Counted from the stretch's first letter, positions 10,518 to 48,303 are shown. The stretch: 64,000 nt of DNA from Selenomonadaceae bacterium (GCA_963598415.1 CAVBUH010000073.1:131669-195668), one strand, 5' to 3'. Notes: generated from the letters alone by a model not told the origin. Numbers and translations are program-made.

Positions 10518-10588
10518 ATCGCCGTTGGCGTTTTATATATTTTTTAAATTATTACTCATTGTTTTTAAATGATTAAGGAGGAATTTCA

Positions 10589-11896
10589 ATGGCACAGGTT
10601 GTTATTATGCCCCGTCAGGGACAAAGCGTTGAAAGCTGTGTTATCACCGAGTGGAAGAAAAAAGTCGGAGATAAAGTCGCGGTTAAGGACGTGCTTTTTT
10701 CCTACGAGACTGACAAATCATCATTTGACGAGCTTTCCGAGACAGAAGGAACGCTGCTTGCTGTTTTTGCTGAGGAGGGAGACGATGTTGAATGCCTGCG
10801 TCCGGTCTGTGTGATCGGAAATGAAGGAGAAGATATATCTGCTCTTATTCCGAAGGAAGAGGCTGCTTCTTCCGCCGCACCGGAGGAGAAAAAAACACCG
10901 GAGGAGCCCGTGAAGGAGACTGTCTCTGTACCGGCGTCCGTTTCCAAGGCTGTTTCCGACGCTGCTGTGGCTGACGATGGTAGATTGAAAATATCGCCGA
11001 GAGCCAGACATCTTGCAGAGCGCACCGACGCGGATCTTTCACGTGCGGTTCCTACCGGTCCTAACGGAAGAATTATTGAGCGTGATGTAAACGCTTTGCT
11101 TGATAAAGGCTTTACCAACGCAGGAAAAGCGGTTGAAGAGGCAAAGGCAGCGGAGATGCCTGCTGCGGCGCCCGCAGCAGCGCCTGCTACGGCTCAGACG
11201 GCTTCCGAATATACCGATGTAAAGCTTCCCAATATCAGAAAAGTCATTGCGAAATCCATGCATGCGTCGCTGTCCAATATGGCACAGCTTACGCTAAATT
11301 CCTCCTTCGACGCAACTCAGGTTATGGCATATCGCGCGCTTCTTAAAGCAAATGCCGAGAAGCTTGGTATGAGTAATATCACTCTGAACGATATCGTTTT
11401 GTATGCGGTTGCTAAAACGCTTCCGATGTTTAAGGATTTGAATGCTCATTATCTTGATGATAAGGATGTTATTCGTTATTTCAATACCGTTAACCTCGGA
11501 ATCGCGGTTGATACCGAGCGCGGATTGCTGGTTCCCACCGTGTTTGGCGCGGAGAAGCTTTCACTTAACGATCTTGCCAGAGAGGCAAAGAGCGTTATTA
11601 CCGCTGCTCAGAAGGGACAGATTTCTCCCGATAAACTGAAGGGGGCTTCCTTTACTGTTACAAACCTCGGAGCTATGGGAATTGAGAGCTTTACTCCTGT
11701 TGTGAATCCTCCTCAAACCGGTATCCTCGGTGTAGGTTCCATTATGTATCGTCTTAAGTCCGACGGAAGTACTTATCCGGCAATGGGGCTGTCGCTTACC
11801 TTTGATCACCGTGCGCTTGACGGTGCGCCGGCAGCTAAGTTCCTTAAGGCTTTGTGCGATAATCTTGCAAATTTCAATTTACTTCTTGCTAAATAA
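10589..11896 (+). CDS. 2-oxoacid dehydrogenase E2 (dihydrolipoamide acyltransferase)
   Basis: 435 aa. Lipoyl domain with ETDKSSF lipoyl-lysine motif, Ala/Pro linkers, catalytic FDHRALDG. Confidence 0.92.
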   Translation: MAQVVIMPRQGQSVESCVITEWKKKVGDKVAVKDVLFSYETDKSSFDELSETEGTLLAVFAEEGDDVECLRPVCVIGNEGEDISALIPKEEAASSAAPEEKKTPEEPVKETVSVPASVSKAVSDAAVADDGRLKISPRARHLAERTDADLSRAVPTGPNGRIIERDVNALLDKGFTNAGKAVEEAKAAEMPAAAPAAAPATAQTASEYTDVKLPNIRKVIAKSMHASLSNMAQLTLNSSFDATQVMAYRALLKANAEKLGMSNITLNDIVLYAVAKTLPMFKDLNAHYLDDKDVIRYFNTVNLGIAVDTERGLLVPTVFGAEKLSLNDLAREAKSVITAAQKGQISPDKLKGASFTVTNLGAMGIESFTPVVNPPQTGILGVGSIMYRLKSDGSTYPAMGLSLTFDHRALDGAPAAKFLKALCDNLANFNLLLAK

Positions 11897-11918
11897 TGAA
11901 AGGTAGCGGTGATATTTA

Positions 11919-13280
11919 ATGTACGATCTTATCATTCTCGGCGGAGGTCCCGCCGGATACAATGCGGCGGAAAGAGCCGCTCACGGAGGGCTTAAAACTC
12001 TTCTTATCGAAGGCAGAGCGCTCGGCGGCGTTTGCCTCAACGAAGGCTGTGTGCCTACCAAGACGCTTCTTTATTCCGCAAAAATTTTCGACTATGCCAA
12101 GCACAGCGCGGAGTATGGCGTAAAATTTGACGGCGCTTCTATTGACCATTCCGCCGTTATCGACAGAAAAGGCAGAGTTGTAAAGACCCTTGTCGGAGGA
12201 ATCGGCGCTTCTATGAAGAGAGCCGGCGTTGAAGTCGTAAATGCCTACGGGGAGATTCTCGGCAGAGATTCCGAGGGCTTTACGGTAAAGGCGGGAGACA
12301 AAGAGTACAAGGGCACCAAGCTTCTGATTTGTACCGGATCAGTAGCGGCGGTTCCCCCGATTCCCGGCTTGCGTGAGGCGGTTGCTTCCGGCTTTGCGAT
12401 GACCAACCGCGAAATTCTGGATATGAAGAAGGTTCCGGAAAAGCTTGTTGTTATCGGCGGCGGCGTTATCGGACTTGAAATGGCTTCCTACTTTAATTCT
12501 ATCGGTACCAAGGTTACGGTAATCGAAATGCTTGACCATATTGCCGGTCCCACCGACAGTGAAATCAGCAAAATTCTATATAAGAATTATGTCAAAAAGG
12601 GTGTTGAGTTCCTCCTCGGAGCAAAGGTTACCTCTGTCGGAACCGATTGTGTAAATTATGAACTCGGCGGAAAAGAGCAGAGCGCCAAGGCTGACGCAGT
12701 GCTCGTTTCGATTGGAAGACGTGCTATGACGCAGGGAATCGGACTTGAAAGCATCGGCGTTCTTACCGAAAGAGGCGCGATCGTAACCAATGACAGACTT
12801 GAGACAAATGTTGCCAATGTTTGGGCTGCCGGAGATGTAAACGGGAAATCAATGCTTGCGCATACCGCTTACCGCGAAGGTGAAGTCGCTGTTAACAATA
12901 TGCTCGGAAAGCCGGACAGAATGAATTATAACTCTGTTCCTGCGGTGATATATACCAATCCTGAAGTGGCTTCTGTCGGAGAAACCTCGGAAACCGTTAA
13001 AGCTAAGGGACTTGACGCAAAGGTCGAAAGCTTTACCCTCAAATACAGCGGACGCTATATTGCCGAAAACGAAGGCGGTGACGGTATCGTTAAGCTCATT
13101 ATCGATAAGGAGCACCGTAAGGTTATCGGTGTACATATGATCGGTAACTACGCTTCCGAAATTATATACGGGGCAGCGCTGATGGTTGACCGCGAGATGA
13201 GAGTGGAGCAGGTTCAGAAGATTGTCTTCCCGCATCCTACCGTCGGTGAGGTTATCAGAGAAGCTATGTTTATGATTTGA
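11919..13280 (+). CDS. lpdA: dihydrolipoyl dehydrogenase (E3)
   Basis: 453 aa. GGGPAGY FAD motif and redox disulfide GGVCLNEGCVPTK. Confidence 0.95.
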   Translation: MYDLIILGGGPAGYNAAERAAHGGLKTLLIEGRALGGVCLNEGCVPTKTLLYSAKIFDYAKHSAEYGVKFDGASIDHSAVIDRKGRVVKTLVGGIGASMKRAGVEVVNAYGEILGRDSEGFTVKAGDKEYKGTKLLICTGSVAAVPPIPGLREAVASGFAMTNREILDMKKVPEKLVVIGGGVIGLEMASYFNSIGTKVTVIEMLDHIAGPTDSEISKILYKNYVKKGVEFLLGAKVTSVGTDCVNYELGGKEQSAKADAVLVSIGRRAMTQGIGLESIGVLTERGAIVTNDRLETNVANVWAAGDVNGKSMLAHTAYREGEVAVNNMLGKPDRMNYNSVPAVIYTNPEVASVGETSETVKAKGLDAKVESFTLKYSGRYIAENEGGDGIVKLIIDKEHRKVIGVHMIGNYASEIIYGAALMVDREMRVEQVQKIVFPHPTVGEVIREAMFMI

Positions 13281-13317
13281 AAATGTAAAATAAAACAGTA
13301 ATAAGGAGATAAAAATC

Positions 13318-15804
13318 ATGCCAAAGAGTCAATTTGTAGATCCCAAAAAAGCCTTTGAATCCGGTTATATTCATTTTACCGATATTCCGGTATGCCAGTA
13401 TAATAAAACCTTAGAGGAAGAGAAAGCTCTCTACAGTAAAGAGGATTTCATGCGTATCTATCGCGACATGGCAATCATTCGCGAGTTTGAAACCATGCTC
13501 AATGAGGTTAAGGTAAAGAGCGAATATAACGGCGTTAAGTATAATAACCCCGGTCCTGCTCACCTTTCGATAGGGCAGGAGGCTTCCGCGGTCGGTGAGG
13601 CCTACAGTCTTGATATCAACGACTATTCCTTTGGTTCCCACAGAAGCCATGGCGAAATCCTTGCAAAGGGCCTTTCTTCCATTCATAAGCTTGACGACAA
13701 AGAACTGTATGATATTATGAAAGAATTTCTCGACGGTTCTGTTCTGAATGTTGTCGAGAAGCATATGAATGCCGGCGGAAATGTAAAGGAGCTTGCTATA
13801 AACTTCCTTCTTTACGGCGCTCTTGCCGAGATTTTTGCCCGTACAACCGGATTTAACCGCGGTCTCGGCGGATCTATGCACGCGTTCTTTATTCCTTTCG
13901 GACTTATGCCAAACAACGCTATTGTCGGTGCGTCTGCTCCGATCGCTCTCGGAGCTGCGCTTTATAAGAGAGCCAATCATAAGCCCGGTATCGTGGTTTC
14001 CAACTGCGGCGACGGCGCAACCGGACGCGGACCTGTTCTTGAGTCCTTTAACTTTGCCTCTATGGATCAGATTACCAAGCTTTGGGGCATGAACGGCAAG
14101 TACAGCGACGGCGGTATGCCGATTCTCTTCAATGTATTCAACAATCACTACGGAATGGGCGGACAGACACGTGGAGAGACAATGGGCTTTGATATGGTAG
14201 CCCGTCTCGGAGCAGGCTTCAATCCCGACCAGATGCATGCTGAGCGCGTAAACGGATATGATCCGCTTGCCGTTATTGACGCGGTTTCGAGAAAGAAGCA
14301 GCTTCTCCTTGAGGGCAAAGGTCCCGCACTTCTTGACGTCGTAACCTACCGTGTATCAGGACATTCGCCTTCTGATTCCTCTACCTACCGTACTCAGGAG
14401 GAGATTGAAGCATGGAAGGCGGCAGATCCGATTCTTGCCTTCAAGAGTAAGCTTATTCTCGGCGGAATTGCTACCGAAAACGAAATTTCGACTCTCAATG
14501 AAGAAATCACGAATCGTATGACAGAGATTATGAAGCTTGCTATCAATGATGAAATTTCTCCCAGAATGGATCTGAACAAGGATCCCGATGCCATTGCTTC
14601 CATAATGTTCTCCAATCAGAAGGTTGTAAGCATGGATCCTTCCAGAGAAGCCGAAATGCTTATGCCTAAAGAAGAGTGTCCGAGAGTAAAGGACATTGCG
14701 GGTAAAGTCCGTAAGGCTACCGATGATAACGGAAAGCCGGTTTCCAAGATGAAGATGTACAACATCTGCGACGGTCTTTTCGAGCCGATTATCGATAAAT
14801 ATTATGATGATCCTACGCTTATTGCCTATGGTGAGGATAACCGTGATTGGGGCGGCGCATTCGGCGTATACAAGAAGATGACCGAGGCGGTTCCTTATCA
14901 CAGATTCTTTAATTCACCTATTTCCGAGTCCGCTATTGTCGGATCGGCGGTTGGCTACGCAATGTGCGGCGGACGCGCGATTGTAGAGCTTATGTATGCA
15001 GACTTTATCGGATGCGCGGGCGATGAAATTTTCAACCAGATGGCTAAATGGCAGGCCATGTCCGCCGGAATTCTTAAGATGCCGATCATCCTTCGTGTTT
15101 CCGTCGGTTCTAAATACGGCGCACAGCATTCTCAGGATTGGACTGCTCTTACTGCACATATTCCCGGACTTAAGGTCGTATTCCCGGCAACTCCTTCCGA
15201 TGCAAAGGGACTTATGACAAGCGCTCTTGACGGAACGGATCCGGTTGTCTTCTTTGAATCACAGAGAATTTACGGAATCGGCGAGCAGTTCCTTCCCGAC
15301 GGTGTTCCCACAGGTCATTACGAGGTTAAGCTCGGCGATCCCGATGTTAAGAAAGTCGGTAAGGATGTAACCATTCTTACAATCGGCGCTGTTCTTTACA
15401 GAGCTCTTGACGCTGCTAAGACGCTTGAAGAAAAATACGGAATTTCGGCAGAAATTATTGATGCGCGTTCTATCGTTCCGTTTGATTACAGCAAGGTTAT
15501 CGAGTCTGTTAAGAAGACCGGAAAGATTCTCATTGTGGGCGATGCCTGCGAGCGCGGATCTGTTATGAAGGATATGGCGGCCAATATTCAGGAATTTGCT
15601 TTTGATTATCTTGACGCTCCCGCTGTTGCTCTCGGATCCCGCAATTGGATCACACCTGCCCATGAGCTTGAGGAGGCTTTCTTCCCCTATCCGGATGCTA
15701 TCATTGATGCGATCCATGAGAAGCTTATTCCGATCCCGGGATATGTTCCTACTCATGACTACTCTGATATAGAGAAAATCGAGAGAGCCAAGAAGGGACT
15801 TTGA
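13318..15804 (+). CDS. 2-oxoacid dehydrogenase E1 component, fused alpha and beta subunits (TPP-dependent)
   Basis: 828 aa. N-terminal half has the TPP motif GDGATGRGPVLESFNFA. C-terminal half is a transketolase-like pyrimidine-binding plus C-terminal domain. Confidence 0.9.
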   Translation: MPKSQFVDPKKAFESGYIHFTDIPVCQYNKTLEEEKALYSKEDFMRIYRDMAIIREFETMLNEVKVKSEYNGVKYNNPGPAHLSIGQEASAVGEAYSLDINDYSFGSHRSHGEILAKGLSSIHKLDDKELYDIMKEFLDGSVLNVVEKHMNAGGNVKELAINFLLYGALAEIFARTTGFNRGLGGSMHAFFIPFGLMPNNAIVGASAPIALGAALYKRANHKPGIVVSNCGDGATGRGPVLESFNFASMDQITKLWGMNGKYSDGGMPILFNVFNNHYGMGGQTRGETMGFDMVARLGAGFNPDQMHAERVNGYDPLAVIDAVSRKKQLLLEGKGPALLDVVTYRVSGHSPSDSSTYRTQEEIEAWKAADPILAFKSKLILGGIATENEISTLNEEITNRMTEIMKLAINDEISPRMDLNKDPDAIASIMFSNQKVVSMDPSREAEMLMPKEECPRVKDIAGKVRKATDDNGKPVSKMKMYNICDGLFEPIIDKYYDDPTLIAYGEDNRDWGGAFGVYKKMTEAVPYHRFFNSPISESAIVGSAVGYAMCGGRAIVELMYADFIGCAGDEIFNQMAKWQAMSAGILKMPIILRVSVGSKYGAQHSQDWTALTAHIPGLKVVFPATPSDAKGLMTSALDGTDPVVFFESQRIYGIGEQFLPDGVPTGHYEVKLGDPDVKKVGKDVTILTIGAVLYRALDAAKTLEEKYGISAEIIDARSIVPFDYSKVIESVKKTGKILIVGDACERGSVMKDMAANIQEFAFDYLDAPAVALGSRNWITPAHELEEAFFPYPDAIIDAIHEKLIPIPGYVPTHDYSDIEKIERAKKGL

Positions 15805-15828
15805 TCTCAGCTTCTTAGACATTTTGTC

Positions 15829-16005
15829 TTAAGGCAGCACTGTGCAGTCACGGCTTGCTCCTTGATGGCATTCTGCTTGCCTGTTTCCCGTCAACTTCAC
15901 AGTTTTTGTTGGCATAGGGGCCCGCTCCTGTTTCCTCAATTTGTATCGTTTGACGAAAAATAGATCGTGCAGCTGTATTGTCAAAAACTGGCAGTATTGC
16001 CTTAA
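15829..16005 (+). repeat. TTAAGG-terminus repeat, full-length copy (subfamily 2)
   Basis: TTAAGGCAGCACTG...GGCAGTATTGCCTTAA. Lies between the E1 stop codon and the operon terminator. Confidence 0.85.
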
Positions 16006-16006
16006 A

Positions 16007-16046
16007 AGTGCTTTTCCCGTTTTTTTCGGGAGAAGCACTTTTTTTA
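16007..16046 (+). terminator. Rho-independent terminator of the 2-oxoacid dehydrogenase operon
   Basis: AGTGCTTTTCCCG-TTTTTTT-CGGGAGAAGCACT followed by TTTTTTT. Confidence 0.8.
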
Positions 16047-16056
16047 TTCGGTATTA

Positions 16057-16085
16057 TTGCAAAATCGCTATAAAAAGGTTATAAT
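16057..16085 (+). promoter_or_regulatory. sigma-A promoter for the LysR gene
   Basis: TTGCAA-17 nt-TATAAT. Confidence 0.55.
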
Positions 16086-16135
16086 ATTCTCAGGGTATTT
16101 TTTGATATACAGCGTATCGAAATCGGAGGCAAGAC

Positions 16136-17062
16136 ATGAATATCATATATTTGAAATATGCTGTTGAGGTAGCGAAAACCTGCTCGATAAGCAAAGCAGC
16201 GGAAAATCTGTATATGGGACAGCCGAATTTGAGCCGAGCAATAAGAGAGCTTGAAGAATCCCTGGGGCTGACAATATTTGTACGTTCTCCCCACGGCGTT
16301 AAAACCACACCGGAGGGTGAGGAATTTCTCTCCTATGCGAAGAATATTCTGCGGCAGATAGATGAGGTGGAAGCGGTTTATACTCAGGGGAAAAAGCACA
16401 GGAAGACTTTTTCGGTATCGGTTCCCCGTTCAAGCTATATATCTTATGCCTTTTCGGAATTTGCCTCAAAGCTGACGGAAGTATCGCCGGTCGATCTTTT
16501 TTATAAAGAAACCAACGCGCAGAGGGCGATTAACAATGTCATAGACGGGGGCTATAATCTTGGTATTATCAGGTTTCAAACAGGATATGAGCAATATTTT
16601 GAACAGCTTTTGCGTGAAAAAGAACTAAATTCCGAGCTTATTTCGGAGTTTTCATATTTCCTTCTCATGTCCGAAGAGCATCCTCTTGCGGGAAAGGAGA
16701 ATATCAGCTATGACGATCTCTCTCACTATACGGAAATTGCTCATGCCGACCCCTATGTTCCGTCTATATCGATGGCTACGGTAAGAAAGGAAGAGCTTCC
16801 TGATATTACAGAACGTCGTATTTTTGTTTTTGAGCGGGCAAGTCAGTTTGATTTGCTTTCAAAGGTTCCGGAAACTTTTATGTGGGTTTCTCCGATTCCT
16901 GACGGACTGCTTGAAAAATACCGACTGATACAGAAGCGCTGTGTAAACAATACCAAGCTTTATCGCGATATGCTGATATACAAAAAATCGTATAAGCTTT
17001 CCGAGCTTGATAAGGATTTTATAACAGAAGTGGTCAGAGCCAAAAGACTTTATTTGAAATGA
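16136..17062 (+). CDS. LysR family transcriptional regulator
   Basis: 308 aa. N-terminal HTH (ISKAAENLYMGQPNLSRAIRELEESLG). Confidence 0.9.
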   Translation: MNIIYLKYAVEVAKTCSISKAAENLYMGQPNLSRAIRELEESLGLTIFVRSPHGVKTTPEGEEFLSYAKNILRQIDEVEAVYTQGKKHRKTFSVSVPRSSYISYAFSEFASKLTEVSPVDLFYKETNAQRAINNVIDGGYNLGIIRFQTGYEQYFEQLLREKELNSELISEFSYFLLMSEEHPLAGKENISYDDLSHYTEIAHADPYVPSISMATVRKEELPDITERRIFVFERASQFDLLSKVPETFMWVSPIPDGLLEKYRLIQKRCVNNTKLYRDMLIYKKSYKLSELDKDFITEVVRAKRLYLK

Positions 17063-17107
17063 AAAACTATATATTTTTGGATATATATCTATATGCCTAT
17101 TAAGCAT

Positions 17108-17136
17108 ATCACAGCAGTGAATGATTGTGATATAAT
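17108..17136 (+). promoter_or_regulatory. candidate promoter of the kinase-hydS-hydA operon
   Basis: ATCACA-17 nt-TGaTATAAT (extended -10). Leaves a leader of about 125 nt. Confidence 0.45.
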
Positions 17137-17267
17137 AATATCGGAGAAGAATTGGTTGTCGTCTCGATTTGCGGCATCCTGAGTGCTCTCACAGGTAAGA
17201 CAGCATAACGGATTGCTGATTGTATCTCTTGGTTCCCGGATTATGCGCAACAGAAAGGATTGGTTAC

Positions 17268-18023
17268 ATGAATCTTGACAGAATTATCGCAGTCAGAAAC
17301 AATAAGACGGTTTTCAGAGACGGAGCCCGTGTTATAAAGGTTTTTGATAGCGATTTTACAAAGGCGGAAATATTAAGCGAGGCTCTTAATCAGGCGTTGG
17401 TTGAGGAGACGGGGCTTCATATTCCGGGAATTATTGAGGTAACTTCCGTGGACGGAAAATGGGCAATCGTTTCGGAATATATAAAAGGAAAAACTCTTGC
17501 TCAGCTTATGAAGGAAAATCCTTCGGAAAAAGATAGTTATATTTCTCTCATGGTAAAGCTGCAGACGGATATATTTTTGAAAACAGTGCCTACGCTTCCC
17601 AAGCTTCGGGACAAGCTGCACCGGAAAATATGCGAGGCAAAGCTTGACGCAACAGTCAGATTTGACCTGCATAATCGGCTTGACGCTATGCCGAAGCATA
17701 CCGAGCTGTGTCATGGGGATTTCAATCCCTCGAATATTACGATTGCAGAGGACGGCGTGCCCTATATTCTCGATTGGTCTCACGCTGCAGCGGGAGATGC
17801 TGCTGCCGATGTCGCACAGACTTATTTTATGCTTCTTTATGAAGGAGACAGCGGAGCGGCGGAAAAATATCTTGACCTTATTTGTTCCCAAGGCGGTATG
17901 GACAGAGAATATATAAAGAGATGGTTCCCGATTGTGGCGGCGGCCGATTCCGTAAGAGGCATGCCGGAGGAAAAAGAATTCTATTATAAGTGGGCAACGA
18001 ATTTAAAAATCGGGGAGGAATAG
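17268..18023 (+). CDS. APH/choline-kinase-fold phosphotransferase
   Basis: Catalytic loop HGDFNPSNI and ILDWSHA motif. Start set at ATG 17268, preceded by GAAAGGA. Confidence 0.75.
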   Translation: MNLDRIIAVRNNKTVFRDGARVIKVFDSDFTKAEILSEALNQALVEETGLHIPGIIEVTSVDGKWAIVSEYIKGKTLAQLMKENPSEKDSYISLMVKLQTDIFLKTVPTLPKLRDKLHRKICEAKLDATVRFDLHNRLDAMPKHTELCHGDFNPSNITIAEDGVPYILDWSHAAAGDAAADVAQTYFMLLYEGDSGAAEKYLDLICSQGGMDREYIKRWFPIVAAADSVRGMPEEKEFYYKWATNLKIGEE

Positions 18024-18029
18024 AACGGG

Positions 18030-18269
18030 ATGAAAATAACAGTATGCATCGGAAGCTCCTGTCATCTCAAGGGTTCAAGGCAGGTAGTGGAAGTATTTCA
18101 GCGCCTTATTGCCGAAAACGGTCTTAAGGACAGAGTAGAGCTTAACGGAACCTTTTGTATGGGAGATTGCCGCTGCGGAGTTTGTATTACGATCGACGGC
18201 GAAAGGCTGTCGGTAAGTCCAGACACTGCCGAAGCGGTTTTTAACGAAAGAGTTCTTGCCGGGCTATAA
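18030..18269 (+). CDS. thioredoxin-like [2Fe-2S] ferredoxin (NuoE/HydC-like)
   Basis: 79 aa. Cys pattern CIGSSC...CMGDC (C-x4-C ... C-x3-C). Confidence 0.7.
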   Translation: MKITVCIGSSCHLKGSRQVVEVFQRLIAENGLKDRVELNGTFCMGDCRCGVCITIDGERLSVSPDTAEAVFNERVLAGL

Positions 18270-18307
18270 AGTGGGAACCGATTTTTGATTATTCAGAGGA
18301 AAAGAAT

Positions 18308-18565
18308 ATGATGATTATCATGATTTGCGTAGGAAGCTCCTGTTGTCTGAAGGGCTCCTACGAGTTGATCGAGCTTTTCAAGGCGGCAATTGCGTCTTAT
18401 GCGCTTGATGACGAAGTCACGCTCGCCGGCAATTTCTGCACCGGAAATTGCAATAGGGTGGGGGTGACAATACAGATAGATGATAAAATATATACGGGAA
18501 TAACCCCGGCGGGTTTTGACGTCTTTTTTAAAGAGCACGTTCTCAAACCTCTCGGAAGAGTTTGA
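18308..18565 (+). CDS. thioredoxin-like [2Fe-2S] ferredoxin (second copy)
   Basis: 85 aa paralog of 18030..18269 with CVGSSC...CTGNC. Confidence 0.7.
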   Translation: MMIIMICVGSSCCLKGSYELIELFKAAIASYALDDEVTLAGNFCTGNCNRVGVTIQIDDKIYTGITPAGFDVFFKEHVLKPLGRV

Positions 18566-18621
18566 AGTGAAAAAGAGGGAGAAAGTCCCCGGATTTTGGC
18601 GGCGAAAGGAGATGTTTATCG

Positions 18622-20298
18622 ATGTCTGACTGCTTAAGACTAAAAAAATCAAATTGTAAAAACTGCTATAAATGTATACGTCACTGTCCTGTGAAAGCGA
18701 TACGCTTTTCCGGGAATCAAGCCAATATCATCGGAAACGAGTGTATTCTGTGCGGTCAATGCTTTGTGGTATGTCCGCAGAACGCAAAAGAGATTACCAG
18801 CGAGACCGAAAAGGTTAAGGTGATGATACAGAGCGGCGTTCCGGTGATTGTAAGTCTTGCGCCTTCCTTTGCCGCTGATTATGACGGGGTAGGGATAGAT
18901 AATATGCGAAAGGCGCTGAAAGCGCTGGGATTTACCGATGCTGAGGAAACGGCTGTCGGAGCTACTATCGTAAAAAACGAATACCAGAGAATGTTAAGAG
19001 AAGAACACAGAGATATTTTGATTTCTTCCTGCTGTCATTCCGTTAATCTTCTGATACAGAAGTATTTTCCGTCGGCATTGCCCTATCTTGCCGATACTCT
19101 TTCTCCGATGCAGGCGCATTGCCGTGACATAAAGCGGCGAAATCCCGAGGCGCAGACGGTATTTATCGGACCTTGCGTTGCCAAAAAGGATGAGGCGGAT
19201 TATTACGGAGGCTATACCGACGCGGTACTTACCTTCGAGGAGCTTGCCGAGTGGATGAAGGACGCGGGCGTTGTGCCGGAGCGCGGCAGAGATAACGATG
19301 AAAACAGCCGCGCACGCTTTTTTCCTACAGCCGGGGGTATTCTCAAAACCATGGAAGAACGGCTTCCGGACTATACTTATATTGAGACGGACGGTGTTGA
19401 AAAATGTATCGAAGCACTTCGGGATATTACCGAGGGAAATGTACATAAATGTTTTATAGAAATGTCGGCATGCGTGGGAAGCTGTATCGGCGGACCGGTT
19501 ATGGAAAAATATCATCGTTCTCCCATTGTGAATTATACCTCTATTGCCGCATATGCGGGAAAAAAGGATTTCAAAACAGAGCAGCCGGACGGCGGCGAGC
19601 TTCATAAAATACTCGAACCGATTGAAAGACGGCTTTCTTATCCTTCCGAATCGGAAATACGCGAGGTTCTGCGTCAGATGGGAAAAACAAAGCCGGAGGA
19701 CGAGCTGAACTGCGGCTCCTGCGGTTATGACACCTGTCGGGAAAAGGCAGTTGCCGTATATCACGGCAAGGCGGAAATTTCGATGTGCCTGCCTTATCTG
19801 AAAGAGAAAGCCGAGAGCTTTTCCGATAATATTGTAAATAATTCTCCGAACGGGATCATTGTTCTGAATGACAAGCTGGAGGTTCAGAAAATTAATCCGG
19901 CTGCGATGAAAATAATGAATATCCGTCTTGCCGCCGATGTTCTCGGAGAGCCGGTGGTAAGGATAATGGATCCCAGACCTTTTCTTGATGTTCTTCAAAG
20001 CCGAAAGGGCGCTCCGTCAACGAAAATTTATCTTGCCGAGTACGGTAAATATGCAGAACAGAGCATTGTTTTTGATAATGAATATCATTTGCTTATCTGT
20101 TTGATACGAGATATTACCGAGGAAGAAAATGAGCGCCGCCGGAAAGAGGAAATAAGTGGGCAGACCGCTGAAATTGCAGACCGCGTGGTAGATAAACAGA
20201 TGCGCATTGTGCAGGAAATCGCTTCTCTTCTCGGAGAAACCGCCGCAGAGACAAAGATAGCGCTTACAAAGCTGAAGGAGTCGATCAGAGATGAATAA
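18622..20298 (+). CDS. hydS: sensory [FeFe]-hydrogenase-like protein with C-terminal PAS domain (HydS type)
   Basis: 558 aa. Two 4Fe-4S ferredoxin motifs. H-cluster motifs SSCCH, GPCVAKKDE, EMSACVGSCIGG. Extra Cx2Cx4Cx16C motif (CGSCGYDTC-16-C). PAS-like region (NSPNGIIVLNDKLEVQKINPAAMKIMN...) and a coiled-coil tail. Confidence 0.85.
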   Translation: MSDCLRLKKSNCKNCYKCIRHCPVKAIRFSGNQANIIGNECILCGQCFVVCPQNAKEITSETEKVKVMIQSGVPVIVSLAPSFAADYDGVGIDNMRKALKALGFTDAEETAVGATIVKNEYQRMLREEHRDILISSCCHSVNLLIQKYFPSALPYLADTLSPMQAHCRDIKRRNPEAQTVFIGPCVAKKDEADYYGGYTDAVLTFEELAEWMKDAGVVPERGRDNDENSRARFFPTAGGILKTMEERLPDYTYIETDGVEKCIEALRDITEGNVHKCFIEMSACVGSCIGGPVMEKYHRSPIVNYTSIAAYAGKKDFKTEQPDGGELHKILEPIERRLSYPSESEIREVLRQMGKTKPEDELNCGSCGYDTCREKAVAVYHGKAEISMCLPYLKEKAESFSDNIVNNSPNGIIVLNDKLEVQKINPAAMKIMNIRLAADVLGEPVVRIMDPRPFLDVLQSRKGAPSTKIYLAEYGKYAEQSIVFDNEYHLLICLIRDITEEENERRRKEEISGQTAEIADRVVDKQMRIVQEIASLLGETAAETKIALTKLKESIRDE

Positions 20299-21463
20299 TC
20301 TTTGCGCAGAGGTGGGCTGGAAAAGCATAAATCATGTGGGCGAGGAGCTTTGCGGCGACCATGTCGATATTGTAAGTCAGGGGGAGGATTCACAGGTGAT
20401 TGTCCTTGCCGACGGACTCGGAAGCGGCGTAAAAGCGAGTATTCTCTCTACCCTTACTTCGAAAATAATATCTACTATGATGGCGGAGGGGCTTTCTATT
20501 GAGGATTGCGTTGAGACGATTGCCGCTACACTCCCTATATGCTCGGTGAGGGGAGTAGCGTATTCTACTTTTACGATCATACATCTGATTGATAATGAAT
20601 ATGCAGAGTTGATACAGTACGATAACCCCGGAGTCATTTTAATCCGCGATTATAACAGCTGCGAGTATCCGAAAACCGAGATCAGCGTCGGCGGTAAAAA
20701 AATAATCAGATCCAAAATAAAGCTGAGAGAGAACGACATATTTATAGCAATGAGCGACGGCTGTCCGCATGCCGGGATCGGTACTGCCTATAATTTCGGC
20801 TGGCAGCTTTCTGATATTGCTTCCTTTATGGAGGGAATCGCCTATGCCGGATATACGGCGAAAACGCTTGCTACCATGCTGGTTGACGAATGCAATAAGC
20901 TTTATGGGGAGCGTCCCGGAGACGACGCTACCGCCTGCGTTGTCAAAATCAGAAGGAGGGAACCGATGAATATTCTGTTCGGTCCTCCGTCAAACCGCGA
21001 CGATTGCAATCGTATGATGGCGTTGTTTTTTTCCAAGGAAGGAAAGCATATTGTCTGCGGAGGCACGACAGCGTCGATTGCCGCAAAGTATCTCGGAAAG
21101 CAGGTCAAAACCAGCCTTGCTTTTGAAGATAAGGAAATCCCTCCGATTTCCGAAATTGAGGGTGTTGATCTTGTTACCGAAGGCGTTATTACGGTAAACA
21201 AGGTATTAACCTATGCTAAGGACTATCTTGCCGATAATAAGTCCTATGAGCATTGGGGGTTCAAACGTGACGGTGCATCTCTTATCAGCAGAATGCTGTT
21301 TGAGGAGGCAACCGATATCAACTTTTATGTCGGCAGAGCGGTTAATCCGGCACATCAGAATCCGGATTTGCCGATTAATTTCAATATTAAAATGAATCTT
21401 GTTGAAGCGCTTTCGGAATGTCTGACCAAAATGGGAAAAAGGATAAAGGTCAGTTATTTCTGA
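20291..21463 (+). CDS. PP2C/SpoIIE-family serine phosphatase with unknown C-terminal domain
   Basis: 390 aa. GDHVDIV...VLADGLGSGVKASI...AMSDGCPHAG...GDDATACVVKI. 8-nt overlap with hydS. About 170 aa C-terminal extension without a recognised family. Confidence 0.85.
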   Translation: MNNLCAEVGWKSINHVGEELCGDHVDIVSQGEDSQVIVLADGLGSGVKASILSTLTSKIISTMMAEGLSIEDCVETIAATLPICSVRGVAYSTFTIIHLIDNEYAELIQYDNPGVILIRDYNSCEYPKTEISVGGKKIIRSKIKLRENDIFIAMSDGCPHAGIGTAYNFGWQLSDIASFMEGIAYAGYTAKTLATMLVDECNKLYGERPGDDATACVVKIRRREPMNILFGPPSNRDDCNRMMALFFSKEGKHIVCGGTTASIAAKYLGKQVKTSLAFEDKEIPPISEIEGVDLVTEGVITVNKVLTYAKDYLADNKSYEHWGFKRDGASLISRMLFEEATDINFYVGRAVNPAHQNPDLPINFNIKMNLVEALSECLTKMGKRIKVSYF

Positions 21464-21499
21464 TTGCGTACGATATCTATAGGAAAGGCTGTCAATCCC

Positions 21500-22924
21500 A
21501 TGAGAAAATTTGATACGAAGGTACAGCATCTGAAATATAAGGTGCTCCGCGAGGTAGCACGCCATGCGTGGAACGGAACACTTTTTGAAAATATGACGGA
21601 TATTCCGAAGCAGATTGTTCCCGGCAATGTTCCGACCATGCGATGCTGCGTTTATAAAGAAAGAGCCATTCTCTCGGAGCGGGTAAAGCTGGCGATAGGC
21701 GGAGATACCTCCAATCCGAACGTCATAGAGGTCATTGAAATTGCCTGTGACGAGTGTCCTGTCGGAGGATATGAGGTGACAAATGCCTGCCGCGGCTGTC
21801 TTGCGCATCGGTGTGAGGATGTCTGCAAGCGGGGTGCTATCAGCTTTGATCATCAGCAAAAGGCTCATATTGACAAGAGTAAGTGCGTGGAGTGCGGCGC
21901 TTGCGCGAAGGTATGCCCCTATACGGCGATTATGAATTATAAACGCCCCTGTGAAAATGCCTGCAAAGTAAAGGCAATCTCTATGAGTGAGACAAAGGCG
22001 GCAAAAATCGACAATAACAAGTGCATTTCCTGCGGCGCCTGCGTTTATCAATGCCCCTTTGGAGCTATCTCCGACAAATCCTTTATTTTGAATGTGATTG
22101 ATCTGATCAAAAAAAGCGAAAATAATTCCGAATATAAGGTGTATGCCGTTGTGGCGCCGTCAATATCAAGTCAGTTTACCTATGCAAAGCTCGGTCAGGT
22201 AATAAGCGGAATCAAGGCGCTCGGTTTTCATACTGTTGTTGAGGCGGCGCTCGGCGCCGATATGGTAGCCGACGCCGAATCGAGAGAGCTTGTTGAAAAG
22301 GGTGTTCTCACAAGCTCCTGCTGTCCTGCTTTCGTTGATTATATAGAAAAGCAGTTCCCTCAGCTGAAAAATTATGTATCGCATAATCTCTCGCCGATGG
22401 CTACGATTGCAAAGTACATAAAGAGTCAGGACTCTTCTGCAAAAGTAGTGTTTATAGGTCCCTGTACAGCAAAGAAAATGGAGTTTCAGAAACCGGAGGT
22501 TCACAAGTATATCGATATAGCTATGACATTTGAGGAGCTTCAGGCACTTTTTGACAGCAGAGATCTCGATATTACCTCAATGGAGGAGGGCGTACTTGAC
22601 AATGCTTCCTACTTCGGAAGAATTTTTGCGCGCTGCGGCGGGCTTGCCGACGCGGTGCGGGAGGGACTTAAGGAGCACGGGAACGAAGATTTTGAATTGA
22701 GAGCCATTTCCTGTGACGGCATTGAAGAGTGCCGTACCGCACTTCTCAAGCTCTCGAAAAAAGTCGGAAATACCAATTTCATTGAGGGTATGGCTTGTGT
22801 CGGCGGCTGTATAGGTGGCGCCGGGTGTCTTACTCACGGTGAAAAGAACAAGGCAGAAGTTGATAAGTATGGAAAAGAAGCTTATGAAAAAACGATTGCA
22901 GACGCGATTTCCGTTTTGAAATAG
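21500..22924 (+). CDS. hydA: catalytic [FeFe]-hydrogenase
   Basis: Complete H-cluster motifs TSSCCPAF, GPCTAKKME, EGMACVGGCIGGAG, plus two 4Fe-4S ferredoxin motifs. Start set at ATG 21500 after AGGAAAGG. Confidence 0.88.
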   Translation: MRKFDTKVQHLKYKVLREVARHAWNGTLFENMTDIPKQIVPGNVPTMRCCVYKERAILSERVKLAIGGDTSNPNVIEVIEIACDECPVGGYEVTNACRGCLAHRCEDVCKRGAISFDHQQKAHIDKSKCVECGACAKVCPYTAIMNYKRPCENACKVKAISMSETKAAKIDNNKCISCGACVYQCPFGAISDKSFILNVIDLIKKSENNSEYKVYAVVAPSISSQFTYAKLGQVISGIKALGFHTVVEAALGADMVADAESRELVEKGVLTSSCCPAFVDYIEKQFPQLKNYVSHNLSPMATIAKYIKSQDSSAKVVFIGPCTAKKMEFQKPEVHKYIDIAMTFEELQALFDSRDLDITSMEEGVLDNASYFGRIFARCGGLADAVREGLKEHGNEDFELRAISCDGIEECRTALLKLSKKVGNTNFIEGMACVGGCIGGAGCLTHGEKNKAEVDKYGKEAYEKTIADAISVLK

Positions 22925-24287: not shown

Positions 24288-24441
24288 ATCTTAAATATAG
24301 TGATTGCAGTAAAAATGCGACGGCGCTTTTCCAAAGGGTTTGGGGATTATGCGGCGCTTAACGAAAAAAGATAAACCCATATTTTCGTGTCGATATTATG
24401 CAGTATCCCCTAAAATGCAACAGTCGAGGGAGGTTGTGCAA

Positions 24442-25326
24442 ATGGAATCGGGTTTTGATGAAAATGAGATGCGGCAGACACAACGACTTAATTATATTTC
24501 ATCTTTTTCCATATCTTATCCGTTGGAGACGGAACTTCGGTATTTCAAAAAACATTTACGCGGAATCAATTACTTCGAGCTTCGTCATTACCCGCATAGT
24601 CATCCTTTTTTTGAGCTTCATTTTCCCGACGGGGAGAGCATGAATATGATAATAGAAGGAGAAAACGTTACCGTTCCGGCAGAGGGCGGAATCCTGATTT
24701 TTCCCGATTGTATTCATTATTGGGATGAGAACAATACTGCATCGCGTCATTTCTCGATTGCCTTTACCGTGAAAAACCAATCGGTAGAATCTTATATAAT
24801 GGAGCTAAAATCGGATATGAATTATATTCTTTATGGGAAAACCGAGGTTGTGAGCTTTGTTCTCTCATATGCTCTCCGCGCGATGGATAACGATTATAAT
24901 ACAAGAGTGTCGCTTCTCAAAAGTCTTACTTCGATATTTATGAATGAAATCATACAGGATTTCAATTCACGCAGCAAACATAAGGTTACTGAGATTTCCA
25001 AGCCGTCACGGACAGCGCTTGCAAAGAAATATATTGCGGAAAATGTCCGATCGGGACTCAGTGTATCAGAGGTTTCACGAAAGCTTCACCTTAGCGAGAA
25101 ACAGTTAAACCGCCTTTTTGTTAAGAATGAGGGAATTTCAGTTTCACAGTATATCAGAAACAGACTATGCGAGGAAGCGGAGGCACAGCTTTTGCGCCAG
25201 GAACAAACGGTGAAAGAGATAAGCTACGAGTTGGGATTCTCGAGTGCAAGCTCTTTCTCTAAGTTTTTTAAGCTTCATAAAGGGCTTAGCCCGACGGAAT
25301 TTCGTTTGAAGTGTAACGAGAATTGA
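24442..25326 (+). CDS. AraC family transcriptional regulator
   Basis: Cupin-like N-terminal half, C-terminal double HTH (SEVSRKLHLSEKQLNRLF ... ISYELGFSSASSFSKFFK). Start at ATG 24442 after GAGGGAGG. Confidence 0.85.
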   Translation: MESGFDENEMRQTQRLNYISSFSISYPLETELRYFKKHLRGINYFELRHYPHSHPFFELHFPDGESMNMIIEGENVTVPAEGGILIFPDCIHYWDENNTASRHFSIAFTVKNQSVESYIMELKSDMNYILYGKTEVVSFVLSYALRAMDNDYNTRVSLLKSLTSIFMNEIIQDFNSRSKHKVTEISKPSRTALAKKYIAENVRSGLSVSEVSRKLHLSEKQLNRLFVKNEGISVSQYIRNRLCEEAEAQLLRQEQTVKEISYELGFSSASSFSKFFKLHKGLSPTEFRLKCNEN

Positions 25327-25561
25327 ATGAAATGTTTCGGATTCATTTTCTTCTTATCGTTAGATCACTATAAAAGTATACCAATTAGAAATAATATGTC
25401 CTAAAATGTCAAGAGGATGTCCTGAAATACCATGGACATCCTTTTTGTTATATGATAAAGTTATAAAAAAGAAGGCGAATCGGATGCTTGCCAAAGAAGA
25501 AAAGTTAATCGTGAAACCGGGATTTGTCTTCTCCAATATCCTCTCAGAAAGGATGGGAATC

Positions 25562-28324
25562 ATGATATTCTCAAAAAACATTTCTTTTAGTGGAACTGCT
25601 GTGATACGAAACTCACTTCTGTTTCTGTTATCTCTTTTCTGCTTCTGTTCATGTCAGAGCGGTTCCGAACAAAGTAAGGAGAGCGAAATAATAAAACCTG
25701 TTTCCTATATCTCATTAAGTGACTATGTCCTTGTTTGTCCCGAAAATGCCGATGCCTCTCTCAATCGCCTGTGCCTTGATATTCGCGATGCGGTGGAGGC
25801 GGAGACGAAGGTTAAGTTACTTTACAAGGATGATTTTATTAAGAATGGTGACGATAGTGAGATTGAAGGAAAAGAGATTCTTGTCGGAAATACGTCACGC
25901 AAGGAAAGCGATGAAGCGCTTAAAGAGCTTTCTTGCGCCCTTGACTATCGTATCTGTGTCATGGGTGACAAAATCGTGATCGTCGGTGGTTCAGAAGTTG
26001 CACTTCATGAAGCTATTTCTGATTTTATTCAAAATATTATTCAAGGAGAAAATGCTATGATTCCTGAAAATTATGACAAGCTGTACCGCTTTAATCGAGA
26101 GGAATATCTTGAGGTACTTAATCCGGTTCTTTCTTTTGATTTTAATGCTATTGAGAATAAGTGCGTAAAATCAAGCGACGGTATAGTTGAGGCAAGACTT
26201 ATCAATGCCTTGATCGAAGGTGGTTATTCCGGTACGGCTCCCCGTTTCCAATACAGTAAGAAGGGAGGAGCGGTTATGGAGCCGGGTACAATCGCCTCCC
26301 TTTGGGAAGGAAAGACAGGATATTCGGTTTCTATGTGGTTAATGCCCTATCAGTCGATTGATGCCACTATCCATTACCGTCTGCTTTCAGTATACGGCGA
26401 GCGCTCTAAGGAAATCCTTGCGATAGAATACAGTAGTCCGACTGTCTATGTTACCGTCCGCGATTCGGGGGATAAAGAAGCACAAAAGCTTTCTTTTACT
26501 TACAATCTGGATACCGCAGTTCCTCCTTTTAATGCTACGCATACCAACGACGGTGTTTGGCAGCTTCTAACCGTGACGGTTGATCGTGCCGGTAACGGTG
26601 TTAGGCTATATATCAACGGCATCGAGATTGCCGCCTTCGGTGATAAGATTGTTTTTGAAACAGATGCTCTTCCTGAACAAAGCAAAATAGTAGTTGGGGA
26701 TTGTATCGGCGGTGATGGTGAAACCTCTTCCCGTAGTTTCAATGGCGTTATCGATGATGTTATGTTCTTTGATCGTGCCCTCAGCGCTTCCGATGTCTAT
26801 GCACTTTATCTAACCTATGGTGAAAGCGAAACGCGTTCGATAACCGAAGATCAAGCCTTCCTTGATGCTATGATAGAAAAACTCGGTTCTAGTTTGGCCG
26901 TTAAAGCGGAAACATCGAATGTTATCTATTTAGGCCGAGTGGTTAAGGCGGATGTTACCGATTACTCGATTAAGAATACTGTAATCGACGACAAATTGTA
27001 TTTGCCCTCGAATCTCTGTGAACGGTACTTCGGAATCGTTGACGGGACTACGCTGACAATAGGGGAGACAAAGGTTGTCGGAAAGATGGTTAATACTGTG
27101 GCCTATTTCTCCGCTGTTGATATTTGCACAGCAATGGGATGGAACTATATCGATCAGGTGAGTACAAACGGTATGTTCTTACTGCTTGCTCCCGATTCCA
27201 ACATCGATGCCGACGCTGATACTGCTTATATTACTCGTATGATCCCTTTCTGTGAGGTCGGTGAGGATGAACCAACCATAACCGTGGAACAGACTCGTGT
27301 TGTTATCGCGGATTCGGATACTAAAGGAGGCAACTATACCTACAGTCCCTCAATCGTACATGTCGGTAACGCACTTTACGCCTCTCGCGACATCTCTTGT
27401 CTCTATACCGAAATTTTTCGCTCAGAAGATGAAGGTAAGACATGGAATTATGTCGGAAAGGTAGAAGGTATGTGGTGGGCAACCATTTTTGAAAATAACG
27501 GCGAACTGTATCTGATTGGACGTTATACGAGCGGCGGAATTTCCGGATCAGGTCCTCATTATATTGGCGTTACCAAGAGTACTGACGGCGGTGTGACCTG
27601 GAGCGATATCGATGCAACGAAGGGCGGCATCAGTTATGATGGCGGTAGAGGAGTTCATTGTGCACCAACACCGGTCCTTAAGCTGAATGGAAAAATTTAT
27701 CGTGTTTTTGAATCGACTTCGGGTGGGAATCGTGAATTTATCATTAGTGCCGATGAGAACAGCGATCTTCTTAATCCGAACAGTTGGACAATTTCTCAAT
27801 ACTTTAGTGGCTACGGCTTTCCGAATGAAGGTAATGCTGTTATGGGGCCTGACGGCAACGTTTGGATTCTGGCACGCTACACGGCAAATAATGCTTTTCT
27901 TATGCGACTGCTTGAGGATGGTAGGGTTGTCGGTTACAATGGTGACGGTTCCGCTTCCTTGATTGATTTTCCGAGTACTGCAAATAAGTTCACTTGTCGC
28001 TATGACGAAAAAACAGGCAAGTATATCGCACTTACCTGCCCACAGATGGATGTTAATTGTTACTATCAGCGCAATTACGCAGCACTTTGTGTCTCAGATG
28101 ATCTTATCCACTGGGAACTGAAAGAGATTCTTCTTTGCGACCGTGAAATTTGCAATGACACCGTATCGGTTGCCCAACACGCCTTCCAATATATTGATTG
28201 GATATTTGATGGTGATGATATTCTCTTTGTAGTACGTGAATCGGCAGAGGATGCCGCGAACTTCCATGACAGCAACTATTTGACACTTTACAGGATCGCG
28301 GAATACGCCAATCTTGTTAAGTAA
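25562..28324 (+). CDS. secreted/lipid-anchored LamG-domain plus BNR (sialidase-like beta-propeller) protein
   Basis: Signal peptide ending LFCFCSC. LamG-type signature NGVIDDVMFFDRALSASDVYALY. Two Asp-boxes, SEDEGKTW and STDGGVTW, in the C-terminal half. Confidence 0.75.
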   Translation: MIFSKNISFSGTAVIRNSLLFLLSLFCFCSCQSGSEQSKESEIIKPVSYISLSDYVLVCPENADASLNRLCLDIRDAVEAETKVKLLYKDDFIKNGDDSEIEGKEILVGNTSRKESDEALKELSCALDYRICVMGDKIVIVGGSEVALHEAISDFIQNIIQGENAMIPENYDKLYRFNREEYLEVLNPVLSFDFNAIENKCVKSSDGIVEARLINALIEGGYSGTAPRFQYSKKGGAVMEPGTIASLWEGKTGYSVSMWLMPYQSIDATIHYRLLSVYGERSKEILAIEYSSPTVYVTVRDSGDKEAQKLSFTYNLDTAVPPFNATHTNDGVWQLLTVTVDRAGNGVRLYINGIEIAAFGDKIVFETDALPEQSKIVVGDCIGGDGETSSRSFNGVIDDVMFFDRALSASDVYALYLTYGESETRSITEDQAFLDAMIEKLGSSLAVKAETSNVIYLGRVVKADVTDYSIKNTVIDDKLYLPSNLCERYFGIVDGTTLTIGETKVVGKMVNTVAYFSAVDICTAMGWNYIDQVSTNGMFLLLAPDSNIDADADTAYITRMIPFCEVGEDEPTITVEQTRVVIADSDTKGGNYTYSPSIVHVGNALYASRDISCLYTEIFRSEDEGKTWNYVGKVEGMWWATIFENNGELYLIGRYTSGGISGSGPHYIGVTKSTDGGVTWSDIDATKGGISYDGGRGVHCAPTPVLKLNGKIYRVFESTSGGNREFIISADENSDLLNPNSWTISQYFSGYGFPNEGNAVMGPDGNVWILARYTANNAFLMRLLEDGRVVGYNGDGSASLIDFPSTANKFTCRYDEKTGKYIALTCPQMDVNCYYQRNYAALCVSDDLIHWELKEILLCDREICNDTVSVAQHAFQYIDWIFDGDDILFVVRESAEDAANFHDSNYLTLYRIAEYANLVK

Positions 28325-47153: not shown

Positions 47154-47160
47154 ACATCAG

Positions 47161-48144: not shown

Positions 48145-48148
48145 CTGT

Positions 48149-48226
48149 TTCTTACTGAAGTGTAAGAATGAGAAGGGGAAATGTAAGCCAAAACTATGGC
48201 AGGACGTTTTCCCTTTCTGGTATAAT
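48149..48226 (+). promoter_or_regulatory. BceR-type operator plus activator-dependent promoter of the ABC genes
   Basis: Inverted repeat TTCTTAC-TGAAGT-GTAAGAA (48149..48168), a further TGTAAG downstream, -10 TATAAT at 48221..48226 with a poor -35. Confidence 0.5.
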
Positions 48227-48303
48227 TTATGCGTAAGAACAGGATCCATCAGTGCCGAGCTTATGGTGCGGTGGGGAAATTTTAGAAAGGAACGGTTATT
48301 CAT

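Follow-up and report, generated by a model that had tools for sequence, protein, structure and literature searches.

What does a sensory hydrogenase report to when it is encoded beside a kinase and a phosphatase, with no evident substrate for either? The question is raised by a six-gene operon at positions 17268 to 22924 of a 64,000-nucleotide stretch of DNA from a Selenomonadaceae bacterium (GCA_963598415.1, CAVBUH010000073.1:131669-195668; this whole stretch is called the window below), in which HydS, a hydrogenase of the sensory type, stands between an APH-fold kinase and a PP2C phosphatase. H2 sensing, and the shift from acetate plus H2 to ethanol or back in gut and rumen fermenters, are the basis of hydrogen transfer between species, of methane output and of engineered ethanol yield. 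The operon type is already known: gene for gene, this one corresponds to a cluster on plasmid pRUMAL01 of Ruminococcus albus 7. We consider it reasonably probable, though far from certain, that the locus is orthologous to the operon by which R. albus 7 and Clostridium thermocellum control fermentation in response to H2, without its rex and adhE genes, and that HydS signals through the phosphatase. Comparison of related loci resolves the cluster into two evolutionary units, a constant one of one or two ferredoxins, HydS and a translationally coupled PP2C, placed beside a catalytic hydrogenase, and an accessory one of adhE and the APH-fold kinase; both are joined in the Ruminococcus and C. thermocellum type of cluster.

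The operon and the elements directly upstream of it are as follows.

16136 to 17062, + strand: LysR-family regulator (Pfam HTH_1 64.6 bits, LysR_substrate 24.4 bits)
17080 to 17136, + strand: promoter region, with palindrome GATATATATC at 17080-17089, -35-like ATCACA at 17108-17113 and TG-extended -10 TATAAT at 17131-17136 (promoter scan and sequence)
17268 to 18023, + strand: APH/choline-kinase-fold kinase, 251 amino acids (Pfam APH 49.4 bits, RIO1 23.6 bits)
18030 to 18269, + strand: thioredoxin-like [2Fe-2S] ferredoxin 1, 79 amino acids, of the NuoE/HydC C-terminal-domain type (2Fe-2S_thioredx 27.3 bits)
18308 to 18565, + strand: thioredoxin-like [2Fe-2S] ferredoxin 2, 85 amino acids (2Fe-2S_thioredx 29.8 bits)
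18622 to 20298, + strand: HydS, putative H2-sensing group C [FeFe]-hydrogenase (Pfam, alignment to solved enzymes, PAS profile); two [4Fe-4S] motifs at 18640-18786, H-domain at 18841-19497, Cx2Cx4Cx16C at 19705-19794, putative PAS at about 19825-20121, terminal helix at about 20134-20295
20291 to 21463, + strand: SpoIIE-type PP2C (amino acids 1-222, 20291-20956) with an alpha/beta C-terminal domain (amino acids 223-390, 20957-21460) (Pfam, AlphaFold)
21500 to 22924, + strand: HydA2, a monomeric ferredoxin-dependent catalytic [FeFe]-hydrogenase, orthologous to R. albus HydA2 and Thermoanaerobacterium saccharolyticum HfsD (TIGR04105)

The positions of the six open reading frames come from translation and reproduce those of the preliminary description of this DNA, with successive gaps of 6, 38, 56, -8 and 36 nucleotides. 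Its domain calls (APH kinase, two [2Fe-2S] proteins, HydS, PP2C, catalytic hydrogenase) agree with Pfam and NCBIfam searches. Within the operon no terminator is predicted on the + strand, and in particular none between 18023 and 18622, the interval in which it had considered that a transcript might end. The two small NuoE-like proteins do carry the thioredoxin-like [2Fe-2S] domain, both scoring above the Pfam cut-off of 24.8, and the translation of the first shows a C-x4-C...C-x3-C motif. HydA2, which had been read as a catalytic hydrogenase downstream of the sensor module, matches Fe_hyd_lg_C at 197 bits and TIGR04105 at 569 bits (cut-off 450) over profile positions 1-461 of 462; its start at 21500 is consistent with the 474-residue orthologues in the relatives L169 and L171.

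How constant is this arrangement? The related loci that we compared number 160 and form two sets, the best 80 of at least 594 matches and the best 80 of at least 549. For the first, species-representative genomes were scanned with an alignment of the kinase; at least 594 genomes held a relative, and the best 80 loci lie at 58-62% identity. The second, a metagenome scan seeded with the kinase of Collinsella, gave 80 loci (L084-L163) that represent 16 kinase clusters at 80% identity. The adhE gene stands immediately 5' of the kinase gene in 61 of the 65 loci with enough DNA, at a median gap of 28 nucleotides. Ferredoxins, HydS, PP2C and HydA2 follow the kinase in the order seen here in 63 of 68 loci, so that the synteny of kinase and HydS anticipated by the preliminary description is borne out; of 61 loci that come from separate species genomes and have enough downstream DNA, 56 hold the complete HydS, PP2C and HydA2 set. 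Of 50 related loci, 41 have a LysR homologue further upstream (40 of these on the same strand) and 28 have rex.

Against this background the window belongs to a minority: rex and adhE have been lost, and tblastn found neither elsewhere in its 64 kb. Four loci of the species set lack adhE (L003, L026, L031 and L080), and rex and adhE are both absent, as in the window, from L003, L026, L080, L169 and L171. The two closest relatives, whose kinases are 86% and 75% identical to that of the window, share its exact layout, including the upstream DeoR and 2-oxoacid dehydrogenase genes and the lack of adhE and rex, so that the adhE-less form is a stable lineage trait in which the kinase is kept. In three adhE-less relatives the kinase is intact beside HydS, and in L169 and L171 its gene overlaps the first ferredoxin gene by 4 nucleotides.

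The two units also occur apart. Collinsella aerofaciens, which belongs to another phylum, has the kinase (L083, 6965-7729) directly behind adhE with no hydrogenase nearby; the identity of this kinase is 37% with the window protein and 46-48% with the R. albus-type orthologues. Of the 14 testable metagenome kinase clusters, 12 have adhE directly upstream and only 2 have HydS downstream. The pair of adhE and kinase stands by itself, with no hydrogenase in the neighbourhood, in Collinsella and 11 further kinase clusters, and five loci (L035, L056, L059, L076 and L079) have adhE and the kinase with no hydrogenase genes behind them. Coriobacteriia, and a number of gut lineages besides, keep the two-gene unit of adhE and APH-fold kinase with no hydrogenase genes close by; no description of this association was found in the literature searched. 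At one of the five loci, L059, genes resembling NfnA/NfnB and the hydrogenase maturases HydG/HydF, judged by their N-terminal sequence only, lie downstream of adhE and the kinase (11797-17213). Conversely, PP2C with its C-terminal domain occurs in the absence of the kinase in Monoglobus (Fd-HydS-PP2C-HydA2, where Fd stands for ferredoxin), in L165 (Rex-Fd-HydS-PP2C-HydA2) and in L166 (HydC-HydB-HydA-Fd-HydS-PP2C). This kinase-less module adjoins a group B hydrogenase in L165 and L002 and a bifurcating one in L166. Since the kinase tracks adhE and the phosphatase tracks HydS, each being found without the other, the two enzymes do not form an obligate pair.

What marks HydS as a possible sensor? 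It is a putative sensory [FeFe]-hydrogenase of group C (M2f, HydS-type). Pfam recognizes Fe_hyd_lg_C at 161 bits and FeS (PF04060) at 41.5 bits, and 4Fe-4S dicluster families cover the two N-terminal motifs. The translation carries SSCCH, GPCVAKKDE, EMSACVGSCIGG and C-x2-C-x4-C-x16-C; the first three align with the H-cluster motifs of solved group A enzymes, SSCCH falling on TSCCP, which agrees with the preliminary reading of H-cluster, [4Fe-4S] and extra four-cysteine motifs. These motifs are kept in 64-66 of 66 orthologues, the four-cysteine motif in all 66. Both methionines that frame the diiron site are replaced, by Ser at the position of CpI M497 (EMSAC) and by Gly at that of M353 (IGPC). 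The first replacement, noted earlier by contrast with EGMACVGGC of HydA2, is real by sequence and by alignment. HydA2 itself retains Met at the M497 position and also has Gly at that of M353 (FIGPCTAKK), so that the Gly does not set the sensor paralogue apart.

Behind the four-cysteine motif, a profile of 18 orthologous HydS C-termini matches cytoplasmic PAS domains, those of CitA (E 7e-4 and 1e-3), WalK (E 0.035-0.07) and DcuS (E 0.2), all over one stretch of 90-100 HydS residues. The terminal helix beyond it (20134-20295, residues ~505-558) is better conserved than the putative PAS domain: the last 35 residues are almost invariant in the 18 orthologues, which differ by 25-45% in the rest of the C-terminal region and are only 53-74% identical over that region. 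The helix is probably an output or docking element and, because it is almost invariant across orthologues, the likeliest contact of PP2C.

The reading frame of the phosphatase overlaps the hydS stop by 8 nucleotides, a junction kept in 64 of 66 orthologous loci. The protein scores 46.6 bits against Pfam SpoIIE (cut-off 25), and its full-length AlphaFold model is confident (predicted local distance difference test, pLDDT, 90.5; predicted template modelling score, pTM, 0.90). Residues 1-222 superpose on SpoIIE, RsbU-like and RsbX phosphatases; the best folds are 3pu9, SpoIIE 5mqh and 5ucg, and RsbX 3w40, with Foldseek E values of 1e-10 to 3e-14 for 3pu9, 5mqh and 3w40, and the aspartates D23, D41, D149, D156 and D211-D212 are invariant among 41 homologues. 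Profile, fold and metal-binding residues therefore agree with the earlier assignment of a SpoIIE-type PP2C adjoining HydS.

The domain that follows, residues 223-390, had been noted as an unassigned region of about 170 residues, and so it stays. It was modelled alone because Foldseek with the full-length model returned PP2C matches only. The model (pLDDT 88.6) is a five-stranded alpha/beta fold with invariant GPP, CGGTT, DLVTEG and NPAH segments, and the domain occurs in 1072 representative protein clusters, almost always as residues 221-390 of proteins of about 390 residues. It belongs to no Pfam family and has no Foldseek match in the PDB at E<=1e-3; the nearest folds are methylglyoxal synthases (E 8.9e-3, template modelling score 0.40-0.49), and a profile search of the PDB returned only a SIS-domain isomerase at a non-significant E of 0.12. 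From the glycine-rich loop one might guess that the domain binds a phosphate ligand. That it might be a built-in STAS-like substrate of the phosphatase was ruled out by Foldseek, by sequence and profile searches of the PDB and by the lack of a Pfam match.

The kinase, called an APH/choline-kinase-fold protein from its HGDFNPSNI motif in the preliminary description, is placed in that fold by Pfam APH well above the cut-off of 23.2. All catalytic residues are present: K24, H149-G-D151-F-N-P-S-N156 and D169-W170 are invariant, and the kinase is therefore probably active. Its best solved relative by sequence is the choline kinase LicA (4r77, E 2.6e-6), and its family matches are small-molecule or minimal atypical kinases, all far under curated cut-offs. 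Pfam finds no Hanks-type Pkinase domain, the loop reading HGDFNPSN, and comparison with StkP gives short catalytic-loop matches only, at E of about 1e-3. Its substrate may be a protein or a small molecule.

What could be the substrate of these enzymes? The preliminary description had concluded that the output target is missing, and part of this stands, as no STAS domain, anti-sigma antagonist or GHKL kinase, and no anti-sigma gene, was found among the scanned open reading frames of at least 80 amino acids in the window. The other part is qualified by the comparison: the gap is partly one of local gene loss, given adhE and rex upstream in most of the related loci, and the claim overlooked the LysR gene at 16136-17062, itself conserved in that position. 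AdhE, Rex and the conserved LysR are the genomic target candidates, and the association of adhE with the kinase makes AdhE the first protein to test as a phospho-target.

The anatomy and conservation of the locus are established; the signalling steps that we propose are modelled on published expression and genetic data for its orthologues, and would run as follows. HydS would bind or turn over H2 at an H-cluster detuned by the Met-to-Ser and Met-to-Gly replacements. The resulting redox state would pass to the C-terminal four-cysteine cluster, from there to the putative PAS domain and on to the invariant terminal helix, which would govern the PP2C made from the overlapping reading frame. PP2C would then dephosphorylate a target, and at high H2 this would set how far HydA2, and in relatives AdhE, is expressed or active. 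The kinase, as a member of the AdhE-associated APH family, may write the phosphate mark that PP2C erases, or may act on a small molecule. The promoter at 17108-17136 is probably under the control of the conserved LysR neighbour.

Several points weigh against this proposal. No target was found for PP2C, and the kinase family consists mostly of small-molecule kinases. The locus counts, being drawn from best matches only, are biased towards close relatives, and the metagenome loci are redundant. The PAS-like region described earlier has weak but consistent backing from the matches of the orthologue profile to PAS domains; it falls below the Pfam cut-off (PAS_9 21.5 bits against 27) and is the weakest element of HydS. 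Finally, the role of the HydS clade as sensor rather than catalyst is putative: the clade keeps a cysteine equivalent to CpI C299 (SCCH in 64 of 66 orthologues) and may therefore be more catalytically competent than the characterized sensor of Thermotoga maritima.

Which other readings could account for the same genes? The one that survives best, which we nevertheless hold to be rather unlikely, is that the kinase phosphorylates a small molecule, a metabolite or cofactor tied to AdhE, and has no mechanistic link to PP2C, the two units having been joined under common H2 or redox regulation and adhE lost later. Such a role fits the families that the kinase matches best (APH, thiamine kinase, LicA choline kinase, macrolide and hygromycin kinases), as well as the finding that adhE with the kinase is the unit conserved across phyla. 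The fit is loosened by the distance of every named small-molecule kinase from its family cut-off, by the lack of an obvious substrate for an AdhE-linked reaction, and by the survival of the kinase after the loss of adhE, where in L169 and L171 it overlaps the first ferredoxin gene.

The view that kinase and phosphatase oppose each other on one protein substrate, as an H2-gated switch resembling partner switching with its substrate gene elsewhere in the genome, is close to the switch put forward in the preliminary description, and we judge it unlikely. What stands of that claim is that both enzymes have intact catalytic residues and that, of 68 close relatives, 63 encode them in a single operon; the kinase is moreover kept with HydS and PP2C where adhE is absent (in the window, L169 and L171), and the same idea has been published for R. 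albus (PMC5707799). What tells against it is the independent distribution of the two genes: the kinase lacks PP2C and HydS in Collinsella, in 12 of 14 testable metagenome clusters and in L035, L056, L059, L076 and L079, and HydS with PP2C lacks the kinase in L002, L165 and L166. Nor did scans of the window find a STAS domain or a GHKL kinase, and the fold of the kinase is APH/choline-kinase, neither of the Hanks nor of the RsbW type.

A more specific idea, which we entertain as speculation and think improbable, makes AdhE itself the phospho-target: the APH protein would be a dedicated AdhE kinase conserved from Oscillospiraceae to Coriobacteriia, the HydS-gated PP2C would erase its mark in the hydrogen-sensing lineages, and the C-terminal domain of PP2C would add a metabolite input. 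The last part draws on the CGGTT glycine-rich loop and on the faint resemblance of the modelled domain to the phosphate-binding methylglyoxal synthase and SIS folds. If this were true, H2 partial pressure would switch the branch point between ethanol and acetate post-translationally besides transcriptionally. That HydS instead serves catalysis or electron transfer as part of a multi-subunit hydrogenase of the Hfs type (ferredoxin, HydS and HydA2), with PP2C modulating the complex directly, strikes us as equally doubtful: the four hfs genes of Thermoanaerobacterium are treated as one hydrogenase and HfsABC is suggested to be active without HfsD (PMC13277313), the C299-equivalent cysteine is kept in the clade and two dedicated ferredoxins adjoin HydS, but the replacement of both methionines, the extra four-cysteine cluster and the putative PAS domain fit the low-activity sensory type (PMC8163306, PMC10055695), deletion of hfsB increases rather than decreases hydrogenase activity (PMC5707799), and the module of ferredoxin, HydS and PP2C also adjoins unrelated hydrogenase types.

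The upstream region deserves a description of its own. The promoter scan returned a promoter-like ATCACA-17-TATAAT with a TG extension at 17108-17136, the same site at which the preliminary description had begun its feature, and a block reading ...TATCTATATG..ATTAAGCATATCAC...TGTGnTATAAT is kept in the two closest relatives, L169 and L171. The perfect palindrome GATATATATC lies 18 nucleotides past the LysR stop and about 20 nucleotides before the -35-like hexamer, and may be a LysR site; L171 and L026 carry a similar element. Half-sites of the Rex consensus have the opposite orientation to those of the inverted repeat ATCACA-N12-TGTGAT, and a reading of this repeat as a Rex box was dropped, as its half-sites are the reverse of that consensus. 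Rfam and tRNA scans of the window were empty, so the leader of about 125 nucleotides holds no known riboswitch. Farther upstream, 9753-15804 encodes a DeoR regulator, a lipoyl E2 acyltransferase, an E3 dihydrolipoamide dehydrogenase and an 828-residue fused E1 alpha-beta protein, a 2-oxoacid or acetoin dehydrogenase cluster; the DeoR and 2-oxoacid dehydrogenase neighbours are also present in the close relatives L169 and L170.

Other genes of the window lie outside the operon. At a distance of 8 kb from it, 31306-31866 encodes an extracytoplasmic function (ECF) sigma factor (Sigma70_r2/r4), a gene with no conserved link to the operon. Within 31306-33083 this gene overlaps by 4 nucleotides the start of a 406-residue open reading frame that has no Pfam match and may encode the anti-sigma factor of the ECF sigma. 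A 972-residue open reading frame at 25406-28324 has as its sole Pfam match a Laminin_G_3/concanavalin-like domain, and an AraC-family regulator (24340-25326) stands just upstream of it. At 47086-51086 a histidine kinase (HATPase_c), an ATP-binding cassette (ABC) ATPase and a 673-residue FtsX-type permease follow one another, the layout of a peptide-sensing or detoxification module.

How does the operon compare with systems that are already known? The closest counterpart was found by tblastn against plasmid records. In R. albus 7, RUMAL_RS17345-17385 on pRUMAL01 read LysR, Rex, AdhE, phosphotransferase, two 2Fe-2S proteins, HydS ([FeFe]-hydrogenase domain protein), SpoIIE phosphatase and HydA2 (4Fe-4S dicluster protein). 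The window has the same order on the same strand, with identities of 55% for LysR, 55% for the kinase (whose orthologue, WP_013483408, is annotated ‘phosphotransferase’), 60% for each ferredoxin, 68% for HydS, 76% for PP2C and 75% for HydA2, and the overlapping junction of hydS and PP2C is shared. It differs in that neither rex nor adhE separates LysR from the kinase, so that six of the eight genes of the unit are present besides LysR; it also differs in its chromosomal setting beside the DeoR and 2-oxoacid dehydrogenase cluster, where the R. albus genes lie on a plasmid. HydS was named in the R. albus cluster. Zheng and co-workers are said to have described, in 2014, kinase, phosphatase, Rex and aldehyde/alcohol dehydrogenase as one transcription unit. 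The eight-gene R. albus cluster falls 111-fold when a partner organism uses up the H2 (PMC6776011), and a relay of the H2 signal from HydS by way of the PAS domain it carries to a neighbouring Ser/Thr kinase was proposed there (Zheng et al. 2014, as reported in PMC5707799).

In C. thermocellum, Cthe_0422 (Rex), 0423 (AdhE), 0424 (aminoglycoside phosphotransferase), 0426 (Fe-S cluster domain protein) and 0427 (SpoIIE) precede a multimeric hydrogenase, and the row Cthe_0422-0431 is co-regulated (PMC3848806). This layout is likened to that of the R. albus cluster by published description; its module precedes an NADH-linked multimeric hydrogenase (Cthe_0428-0430), that of the window a monomeric enzyme of the HydA2 type. 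In Thermoanaerobacterium saccharolyticum, hfsB, hfsC and hfsD are by description the equivalents of HydS, PP2C and HydA2, namely a PAS-containing hydrogenase, a serine phosphatase and a HydA2-like enzyme, and their genetics indicate a regulatory role linked to adhE (PMC5707799, PMC11837493). No APH-fold kinase is described in the hfsABCD operon, where HfsA is reported to be unlike known proteins, and the hfs mechanism was still called unknown in 2026 (PMC11837493, PMC13277313).

The biochemically characterized HydS of T. maritima (TmHydS; group C, M2f) shares with the window protein the two N-terminal [4Fe-4S] motifs, Cx2Cx4Cx16C and the replacement of M497 by Ser and of M353 by Gly, and has a PAS domain, which is putative in the window protein (PMC8163306). 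TmHydS has Ala at the C299 position (PMC10055695), where the window clade keeps Cys (SCCH); loss of C299 is typical of group C yet variable within it. A further difference is the PP2C partner of the window clade, which is translated from an overlapping reading frame.

More distant parallels concern the logic of the output. The phosphatases of the partner-switching modules RsbU/RsbV/RsbW and SpoIIE/SpoIIAA/SpoIIAB share the SpoIIE/RsbU/RsbX PP2C fold; the window differs from them in lacking a STAS substrate and a GHKL anti-sigma kinase, in having an APH-fold kinase, and in a PP2C C-terminal domain that is not STAS-like. The [NiFe] system HoxBC-HoxJ-HoxA of Ralstonia eutropha follows the same logic as proposed here, a detuned hydrogenase reporting H2 through a PAS-containing partner to hydrogenase genes (PMC5707799), but it employs an unrelated class of hydrogenase and its output is a histidine kinase with a response regulator rather than a PP2C. 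The window thus brings no new kind of system; the comparison separates the sensor proper, composed of ferredoxin, HydS and PP2C with its C-terminal domain, from an AdhE-linked kinase, and this two-unit picture directs attention to AdhE, Rex and the LysR neighbour rather than to a partner switch of the STAS type.

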